Shown here piece after piece: positions 61,820 through 62,467 of a stretch of 64,000 nucleotides of DNA. Made by a program: the position numbers and the translations under genes. This DNA is from a virus (taxonomy: Duplodnaviria > Caudoviricetes), in IMG/VR virus record IMGVR_UViG_3300037455_000173, positions 32,001-96,000 of that record, one strand, 5' to 3'. Position 1 is the first letter of the stretch; every line of letters starts with the position of its first letter. The notes under the pieces are model-generated. The model was not told the DNA's origin and searched no databases. It was given only the letters and a program-made list of their open reading frames with translations.

Positions 61820-62003
61820 CTAGGTGAGTGCGCCTTGCGTCACAGACCACTCACATGATTCCAAAGTATTAACGTGCGAAGGAATACCTAGCACGGCTTT
61901 TTAGTGCCCACCACTCAACGCCTGTGGTTCCCGAGTGTCGCTCTCGTCGAAGTAAATTTACAGAGCAGCTTACTCTGTTAATGTAGGTGTACTCTTCACC
62001 TAT

Positions 62004-62039
62004 TGGTGCCATCTTATAGTAATTTACCTACTTGACAGC
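62004..62039 (-). ncRNA. tRNA minihelix MH4
   Basis: GCTGTCAAGTAG-GTAAATTA-CTATAAGATGGC-ACCA (two A-A mismatches). Confidence 0.6.
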
Positions 62040-62118
62040 ATACTGCCAACAACATTGACGCGACTCGATGCTGCTGGCAAGCACTTTATGAATGCGGGGT
62101 TGGAAAACATAAGACCCC

Positions 62119-62153
62119 TGGTGGTCATATCAAGTCATTACCTCAATCTGACC
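62119..62153 (-). ncRNA. tRNA minihelix MH5
   Basis: GGTCAGATTGAG-GTAATGA-CTTGATATGACC-ACCA. Confidence 0.75.
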
Positions 62154-62254
62154 GTTTCGGCTAATGGTGTGAGCATTAGCCGGAATCTTAAGGAAAGTGG
62201 CTTCTACACGCTAAGCATAGAAGTGTCAGTAAGTATGGGTTTAACCTTACTGAT

Positions 62255-62339
62255 TGGTGCGGATGACAGGACTTGAACCTGCACACCTCTCGGCATCAGA
62301 ACCTAAATCTGACGTGTCTGCCAATTTCACCACATCCGC
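62255..62339 (-). tRNA. tRNA-Leu (TAG)
   Basis: 85-nt class II cloverleaf; TCAGA-TTTAGGT-TCTGA; CCA. Confidence 0.95.
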
Positions 62340-62467
62340 AAAAAGTAAGGGAATTGCTTCCCTTTAAGGTGAACAAAAGATAGGCGAAGAAAAAGTATTA
62401 AGGATAATTTGTAGTAGTGGTTAACTACATTCTTATTATACAGTTTTGTATCGTGTAAACTCGAAGT

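Follow-up and report, generated by a model that had tools for sequence, protein, structure and literature searches.

The locus lies on a 166,592-bp phage record in IMG/VR, of which we analysed bases 32001-96000, a stretch of 64,000 nucleotides referred to below as the window, with positions counted from its first base. The DNA sequencing runs that bear the region derive from cattle and goat gut samples, and the phage is a rumen phage. When the region was compared with cultured phages by BLAST, matches were limited to its tRNA-Leu part, and we therefore find no cultured relative. All of the array features discussed here, together with nearly all genes of this part of the window, are encoded on the minus strand. 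A 67-aa ORF that stops at 62468 and a DUF5406 ORF that starts at 61170 enclose about 1.3 kb in which no ORF is credible and tRNA-Leu(UAG) is the sole gene called by ARAGORN and Rfam. Behind a promoter, this region carries the series tRNA-Leu(UAG), spacer 1, MH5, spacer 2, MH4, spacer 3, MH3 and further structured RNA, where MH stands for minihelix and R1, in the lines below, for the covariance model of the minihelix.

62467-62435, minus strand: phage-type promoter motif at the head of the array (motif match)
62347-62364, minus strand: leader hairpin and U-rich run, 7 nt before tRNA-Leu (terminator-like scan)
62339-62255, minus strand: tRNA-Leu(UAG) with an encoded A-CCA end (ARAGORN; 56.4 bits with the Rfam tRNA model)
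62254-62154, minus strand: spacer RNA 1, 101 nt; three hairpins and an unpaired pyrimidine-rich linker
62153-62119, minus strand: MH5; GUAAUGA loop and ACCA tail (R1 46.6 bits, E = 1.5e-12)
62118-62040, minus strand: spacer RNA 2, 79 nt; three hairpins
62039-62004, minus strand: MH4; diverged, with a 2x2 internal loop, an 8-nt loop and an ACCA tail
62003-61820, minus strand: spacer RNA 3, 184 nt; conserved, with several stems and a 12-bp hairpin at its 3' end
61819-61785, minus strand: MH3; perfect 12-bp helix, GUAAUGA loop and ACCA tail (R1 49 bits, E = 2.4e-13)
61784-61702, minus strand: 83-nt hairpin RNA with a 9-bp closing stem and an ACCA end, first module of the presumed 'large RNA'
61171-61701, minus strand: further RNA modules, extending to the start of the ORF at 61170-60796
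61170-60796, minus strand: DUF5406 ORF, which bounds the array region downstream

The order, strand and elements of this array are all as an earlier reading of the sequence (the original prediction) had placed them. Its promoter, put at 62433-62468, was also borne out: the site is one of 33 copies of the motif ACTTCG-N20/21-TATAAT in the window, which run from 7623 to 63458, all on the minus strand, against 0.02 copies expected. A classic sigma-70 site was considered and rejected, the promoter being a copy of this phage-specific motif. TGT usually precedes the -10 box of the motif. The next copy downstream of the array head lies 1.6 kb further on (60787-60756), and a terminator-like scan found no internal terminator with a U tract in the array. 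With no second copy of the promoter motif before 60787, it is therefore plausible that the tRNA-Leu/minihelix array forms one transcription unit. The leader hairpin is joined to tRNA-Leu by a short linker, the same layout as is found upstream of every minihelix.

The three spacers had been described as hairpin-rich, with lengths of about 100, 80 and 185 nt, in good agreement with the lengths listed above and with the folds of spacer 1 (MFE -31.1 kcal/mol, z = -5.7 against dinucleotide shuffles) and spacer 2 (MFE -30.8 kcal/mol, z = -4.8 against the same kind of control). As also predicted, a new stem begins straight after the CCA, with a gap of 0-2 nt in every case. Two details had to be corrected: the loop of the first hairpin of spacer 3, read as pyrimidine-rich, is actually purine-rich, and the '590-nt large RNA' supposed to follow MH3 is instead a chain of smaller modules (61171-61784).

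The minihelix is designed as a 12-bp helix of 7 acceptor-like and 5 T-like base pairs with a G-C first pair, closed by a 7-8-nt GUAA-type loop and ending in an A-CCA tail. Two further copies are present in the window, MH2 in the 3' UTR of another operon and MH1 downstream of tRNA-Gln and tRNA-Glu, and these loci hold the following features.

59586-59798, minus strand: 70-aa protein with an Acb2/Tad1 hairpin domain (E = 1e-11), immediately upstream of MH2
59511-59477, minus strand: MH2; same family, with a UUGG tail rather than CCA (R1 37.2 bits)
59340-59476, minus strand: RNA after MH2, with a covarying closing stem, ending at a terminator
59335-59306, minus strand: strong intrinsic terminator after the post-MH2 RNA (terminator-like scan)
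58273-59151, minus strand: 292-aa protein with an N-terminal PemK/MazF-like ribonuclease-toxin domain (E = 9e-13)
55399-55365, minus strand: MH1; same geometry, ACCA tail (R1 31.4 bits)
55225-55364, minus strand: RNA just after MH1, a candidate anti-RBS regulator of early genes

Part of the post-MH2 RNA (59457-59380) is 81% identical in the related phage G001. On the basis of its domain, the 70-aa protein is a candidate sponge for cyclic-nucleotide defence signals, and the 292-aa protein could likewise be an RNA-processing or host-shutoff nuclease. Homologues of the latter (50-60% identity) are encoded directly downstream of tRNA/non-coding RNA arrays in the related phages G001 and G007.

MH1, MH2, MH3 and MH5 share the 7+5 bp helix and 7-nt loop, with no mismatch in MH3 and one in MH5, both of which end in ACCA, whereas MH4 has two mismatches and an 8-nt loop. 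The combination of G1-C72, a purine discriminator and CCA is present, as ACCA, in MH1, MH3, MH4 and MH5, but not in MH2, and the predicted fold of MH3 has an energy of -16.3 kcal/mol. In its geometry (12-bp coaxial helix, 7-nt loop) the minihelix corresponds to the model hairpins used to study RNase P; its loop, which reads GUAAUGA or differs little from it, departs from the canonical T-loop. A scan of both strands of the 166-kb genome for this geometry together with CCA returned four hits, three of them MH1, MH3 and MH5, as compared with 0.8 +/- 0.75 (maximum 2) in 60 Markov-simulated genomes. The minihelices did not match the Rfam tRNA model (RF00005) even at E values up to 5, and the only tRNAs called by ARAGORN and Rfam are tRNA-Leu, tRNA-Gln and tRNA-Glu. 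We rejected the possibility that the minihelices are cloverleaf tRNAs, as the 5' acceptor strand joins the T-type stem directly. A kissing interaction between the loop and a heptamer at 61716 was also discarded: the heptamer has 45 copies in the genome, is not conserved in relatives and forms one side of a local stem.

The 15-nt core of MH3 and MH5 was found again in IMG/VR. In an unbiased pattern search, which left every base free except the opening G, the closing C and the core, the outer stems of all six viral hits pair (0-1 mismatch) despite having six different sequences. Two of the four hits in prokaryote genomes, from a Clostridia MAG and a Candidatus Aphodosoma MAG, pair perfectly, while the remaining two are mismatched at 5 of 7 positions and show the chance level. 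In an alignment of 11 copies, 97% of cells pair, as compared with 28-44% in shuffled or slid controls; double compensatory changes affect 8 of the 12 pairs, and the G1-C pair is present in every copy. Only one strand can fold, because about a quarter of the cells are G-U, and the folding strand is always the transcribed one, namely that of the neighbouring genes. Phages that have nothing else in common carry almost the same loop and T-type stem, tandem G-U pairs included, while the outer stems differ between copies. A core common to unrelated phages, flanked by outer stems that differ and yet still pair, argues for a true RNA family. Judged by this comparative evidence, the minihelix is a conserved, covarying RNA family that is absent from Rfam. 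At both gathering and permissive thresholds, Rfam detects only tRNAs in the window and in six related loci. ROOL, GOLLD and other catalogued large phage RNAs were considered as well and set aside, since no Rfam covariance model for them matched the window or the six related loci.

A search with R1 recovered more copies in related and unrelated phage records, and two hits in 151 sampled Clostridia genomes, one of which is a doubtful hairpin with a different loop. Across the family, NCCA is encoded in 8 of 18 copies. The stand-alone copies found in small AT-rich phages and in the two MAGs lack CCA and directly follow a hairpin resembling an intrinsic terminator; in the small AT-rich phages they lie upstream of terminase genes, and no neighbouring non-coding RNA was found there. 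In five unrelated phage or prophage records the minihelix lies 4-8 nt past a U-tailed, terminator-like hairpin, and a gene starts 30-130 nt downstream of it; in four of the five this gene is a small-terminase candidate followed by the large terminase. Where the gene after a stand-alone copy could be read, in four viral records and the Clostridia MAG, it is the small-terminase candidate.

Two side observations concern these searches. In L004, an AT-rich phage, a TnpB-type gene with a downstream RNA region (oriented positions 918-2200) has been inserted upstream of the terminator-plus-minihelix unit, and the insertion is missing from two relatives. Furthermore, around half of the 60 exact hits to the 15-nt core are copies of one near-identical sequence (L005, L011, L020, L021, L026 and some 25 other viral contigs). 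By sample number alone, most of these contigs are close to the human-gut hits. The flanks of this sequence pair poorly in the minihelix register (2-3 mismatches), and it may be a different element or a coding sequence.

We then compared the array with those of related phages, using G001 (148.7 kb) and G007 (162 kb), which are complete or near-complete, and the fragment L088. Spacer 3 is 83-94% identical in the three, and is thereby better conserved than the tRNA-Leu gene (81-85% in G001 and G007); its consensus fold has 44 pairs, six of which show compensatory changes in an alignment of only four sequences. In all four phages spacer 3 starts on the base after a CCA end, this being the end of an MH4-type minihelix for the window and G001, of a CCA-ended hairpin RNA for G007 and of an odd tRNA-like gene for L088. 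Downstream, it stops 4-7 nt before a minihelix or a genuine tRNA: the former in the window and G001, tRNA-Leu(UAA) in G007 and, in L088, a tRNA truncated where the contig stops. Spacer 3 is thus bounded by a CCA end on one side and by a minihelix or tRNA on the other, so that minihelices occupy the positions of tRNAs, and the gene layouts of the four phages show the two to be interchangeable beside this spacer. Word searches with the conserved core of spacer 3 identified only three other viral contigs, and only two of these in the metagenome collection.

The other spacers behave differently from one another. Spacer 1 has a counterpart in G001, placed between tRNA-Leu(UAG) and a minihelix and with the same three-hairpin layout, which shares with it a loop motif and a motif in the unpaired pyrimidine-rich linker. 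For spacer 2, no homologue was detectable in G001, G007 or L088. The cargos had been called variable, and this may hold for spacer 2, which looks unrelated to its counterpart, but not for spacers 1 and 3, which are conserved between phages. G001 also has a counterpart of MH5 (87% identity), as well as the MH4-type variant preceding its spacer-3 homologue. Its block of 1.3 kb has three tRNAs, four minihelices and, in another order, six or more of the RNA modules seen here, from which it follows that modules have been reshuffled at tRNA and minihelix boundaries.

For 17 minihelix copies enough upstream sequence was available to look for a preceding hairpin, and all 17 have a stable one, of 5-15 bp (mostly 9-15), that stops 1-11 nt short of the minihelix. 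At position -1, 12 of the 17 have U; bacterial RNase P prefers this base there. The proposal that conserved units separate the cargos is thus supported at the level of sequence comparison, by a covarying family, by tRNA-equivalent positions, by upstream hairpins and by reshuffled modules. The relatives also contain tRNA-like genes in which the T arm and the acceptor stem are canonical but the middle is long and unusual (L088:12022-12155, L094:8715-8819 and L094:5443-5590), none of which is called by ARAGORN or Rfam; one of them has an 11-bp acceptor-like stem and no CCA.

Among the modules beyond MH3, the 83-nt hairpin RNA has homologues in G007, L088 and G001, with compensatory changes in 10 of its 22 predicted pairs, and the segments 61708-61605 and 61593-61443 match two separate sites in G007, each of which adjoins a tRNA. 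When contigs from rumen RNA libraries were placed on 59000-63400, their cover within the array was restricted to tRNA-Leu and 61329-61690, with none over spacers 1-3 or the minihelices, it being a property of such libraries and assemblies that small RNAs are lost. The segment 61329-61690 is covered by contigs from four rumen libraries of four studies, one of them at a depth of 27, as compared with 2-4 on neighbouring genes.

The spacers had also been proposed to act on phage mRNAs as antisense regulators. We examined perfect complementarity to the phage genome and duplex energies with 232 phage translation-initiation regions, in both cases relative to shuffled controls. Spacers 1, 2 and 3 have 6, 3 and 13 perfect matches of at least 11 nt to the phage genome, where about 7, 5.5 and 14 are expected, and the longest is 13 nt. 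Their best and top-ten duplex energies across the 232 regions are no better than those of shuffled sequences. Both measures therefore place the three spacers at the control level, which does not bear the proposal out. The RNA just after MH1 served as a positive comparator and stands out in both tests. It has 15-nt perfect complementarity to the ribosome-binding leaders at 42850-42836 and 36087-36073 and several further matches of 13-14 nt to ribosome-binding leaders on the same strand, including those at 47728 and 41657, and its top-ten duplex energy is about 4 sd better than that of controls. At least one minihelix-adjacent RNA therefore looks, from its complementarity, like an antisense regulator, unlike spacers 1-3.

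Taking these data together, we consider it somewhat better than an even chance that the region functions as a polycistronic operon of non-coding RNAs, driven by the promoter and divided by tRNA-like signals that direct RNase P and 3' trimming. Under this model, the RNase P of the host would see the 12-bp acceptor/T-type helix (G1-C72, A73, CCA) as a pre-tRNA and cut on its 5' side, and each such cut would generate the 3' end of the upstream spacer RNA, shielded by its terminal hairpin. Maturation of the 3' side would halt at CCA, with RNase Z cutting those copies that lack it, and the 3' cut would free the 5' end of the next RNA, which would fold at once. Processing would be expected to yield tRNA-Leu, three minihelices of 35-36 nt, the downstream modules and folded RNAs about 100, 80 and 185 nt long. 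We infer these minihelix cleavages by analogy with tRNA: in favour of processing, the 7+5 bp helix, G1-C72 and A73-CCA reproduce the geometry of the tRNA acceptor/T domain, and a hairpin just upstream of the minihelix is what would be expected if a cut at its 5' edge leaves an RNA with a stem-protected 3' end. None of the three large phages matched the family of the CCA-adding enzyme (PF01743), so that the work would fall to enzymes of the host. The released RNAs probably act in trans as structured RNAs and not as antisense regulators of phage genes. Two observations count against processing, however. The stem and loop are conserved beyond what an RNase P signal should need, and this excess conservation hints at an additional specific partner; moreover, lone minihelices without CCA are found upstream of terminase genes in small AT-rich phages. 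The non-T loop, its near-invariance and these lone terminase copies lend some weight to a role in binding a partner and, more weakly, to a cis-regulatory role.

In the first of these alternatives, the minihelix would itself be the product, a mimic of the tRNA acceptor that binds a specific protein, with the spacers being secondary; the partner might be a decoyed host factor or defence toxin acting on tRNA 3' ends, or a phage protein. We regard this as unlikely. It would account for a core (tandem-G-U stem and GUAAUGA loop) that hardly changes between phages sharing nothing else and for stand-alone copies without adjoining non-coding RNAs, and it fits the Acb2/Tad1-type anti-defence sponge gene nearby and the MazF/PemK-like ribonuclease-domain protein that adjoins the arrays in all three large phages. 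On the other hand, no protein family was found to co-occur with the minihelix beyond three related phages, the other records being fragments; an encoded CCA is missing in 10 of the 18 copies; and processing offers a simpler explanation of the tRNA-equivalent position and of the protective hairpins upstream. A version that joins the two ideas, which we hold to be rather improbable as a whole, would have the minihelices both punctuate the transcript and, once released, sponge a host factor acting on tRNA 3' ends. They would then be abundant 35-nt CCA-ended acceptor mimics with a private loop signature, aimed for example at a defence toxin that modifies or cuts CCA ends, while the spacers would be trans-acting anti-host RNAs; the 184-nt spacer RNA would be foremost among such new anti-host RNAs, made by the same processing route.

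The arrangement in the five unrelated records, where the minihelix sits between a U-tailed terminator-like hairpin and a gene that in four of them is a small-terminase candidate, could instead point to a cis-acting element, either part of a terminator/antiterminator switch or a 5' stabiliser, for instance for a terminase operon. As a general explanation this seems quite improbable, since no U tract follows the minihelix, the copies in the window and in G001 lie between tRNAs and non-coding RNAs, far from start codons, and neither the CCA tails nor the G1-C72 pair would have a role. It is very improbable that the minihelices are without function, being either decayed tRNA genes or pieces of tRNA ends that integration or recombination left behind, and the spacers structured junk. 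The minihelices do sit among tRNA genes, and these phages hold several odd tRNA-like genes with long inserts, but the loop is not a tRNA T-loop, spacer 3 is better conserved than the tRNA-Leu gene, and decayed tRNA genes are unlikely because a non-tRNA core is common to unrelated phages and the stems carry compensatory changes. We find it scarcely credible that the array imitates a repeat-spacer system, be it a type III antitoxin array cut by a ToxN-like nuclease or a mimic of CRISPR repeats. The repeat unit of about 35 nt is indeed of ToxI-like size, and past a terminator downstream of the MH2 locus there is a gene for a nuclease of the MazF/PemK fold; that gene, however, has its own promoter, the outer stems differ from unit to unit, a divergence that a mimic of CRISPR repeats would not tolerate, the spacers are structured and 79-184 nt long, and direct repeats are confined to the minihelix cores and the CCA junctions. 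ToxI-like arrays consist of tandem direct repeats of about 34-45 nt beside a ToxN-family gene. The absence of tandem repeats argues against a ToxI-like array, and we rejected this candidate, the nearest nuclease-fold gene being PemK/MazF and not ToxN.

If the cuts predicted by the processing model do occur, stripped-down tRNA mimics would serve as portable cut signals for phage multi-RNA operons, and in other phages minihelices would part the packaging genes from upstream transcripts. Bacterial viruses would then offer a natural parallel to the tRNA punctuation of mitochondria and to the synthetic tRNA-guide arrays of genome engineering, and the array would flag several conserved, uncatalogued phage RNAs, namely the 184-nt RNA, the 83-nt hairpin RNA with its CCA end and the RNA at 61329-61690. 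Since the minihelix core is short and well defined, it can be used as a search handle for RNA operons in viromes. The principle, tRNA-like punctuation, is a known one; the phage RNA family that carries it is itself uncatalogued, and a search of the full-text literature returned no description of phage minihelix arrays or acceptor-mimic decoys.

The RNase P model hairpins developed in the work of McClain, Guerrier-Takada and Altman (reviewed in PMC11143913), which consist of an acceptor stem, a T stem-loop and RCCA, are cleaved efficiently and correctly by the RNA of bacterial RNase P, whether or not its protein is present, and their RCCA end pairs with the P15 loop of that RNA (PMC11143913). 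Like these hairpins, the minihelices consist of a coaxial helix of 12 bp, a loop of 7 nt and an unpaired RCCA end, so that a cut would be expected 5' of G+1; unlike the synthetic hairpins, they are natural, form a family encoded in phage genomes and have a conserved loop of their own instead of the T-loop. In plant mitochondria, tRNA-like t-elements are sites at which RNase P and RNase Z make mRNA ends (Forner et al. 2007, PMC1920247). Both t-elements and minihelices are tRNA-like, have no anticodon function and are embedded in longer transcripts. The minihelices differ in belonging to bacteriophages, in flanking non-coding RNAs rather than mRNAs, with cleavage here being a prediction from sequence, and in being a bare 12-bp helix with a conserved non-T loop and, often, an encoded CCA.

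Theta ribozymes, which are minimal HDV-like ribozymes, abut the tRNAs of gut phages and have been proposed to define the tRNA 3' end (PMC10879173). The likeness is that, in gut Caudoviricetes, phage tRNAs are followed at once by structured RNA. We rejected such a ribozyme at this locus: there was no HDV-type Rfam match at E values up to 5, and by manual reading the stems that follow CCA enclose 12-13 nt without an inner helix, which is too short for the P2/P3 elements of the nested double pseudoknot (P1, P1.1, P2, P3, P4) that defines such ribozymes. Among phages, the tRNA cluster of T4 includes the co-transcribed stable RNAs species 1 and 2, and regulatory RNAs matured by RNase P are found in P1 and P7 (C4) and in P4 (CI). 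As proposed here, these are phage non-coding RNAs freed by the tRNA-processing enzymes of the host via acceptor-like helices and CCA-type ends; in those cases, however, the tRNA-like helix is part of the functional RNA, whereas in this array separate, dedicated minihelices alternate with the RNAs. In the MALAT1/mascRNA transcript and in engineered tRNA-guide RNA arrays, a tRNA-like module acts purely as a cut site that releases adjoining non-coding RNAs, the same role as that suggested for the minihelices, although these systems are eukaryotic or synthetic and use full cloverleaf-like modules where the phage array would make do with a bare minihelix.
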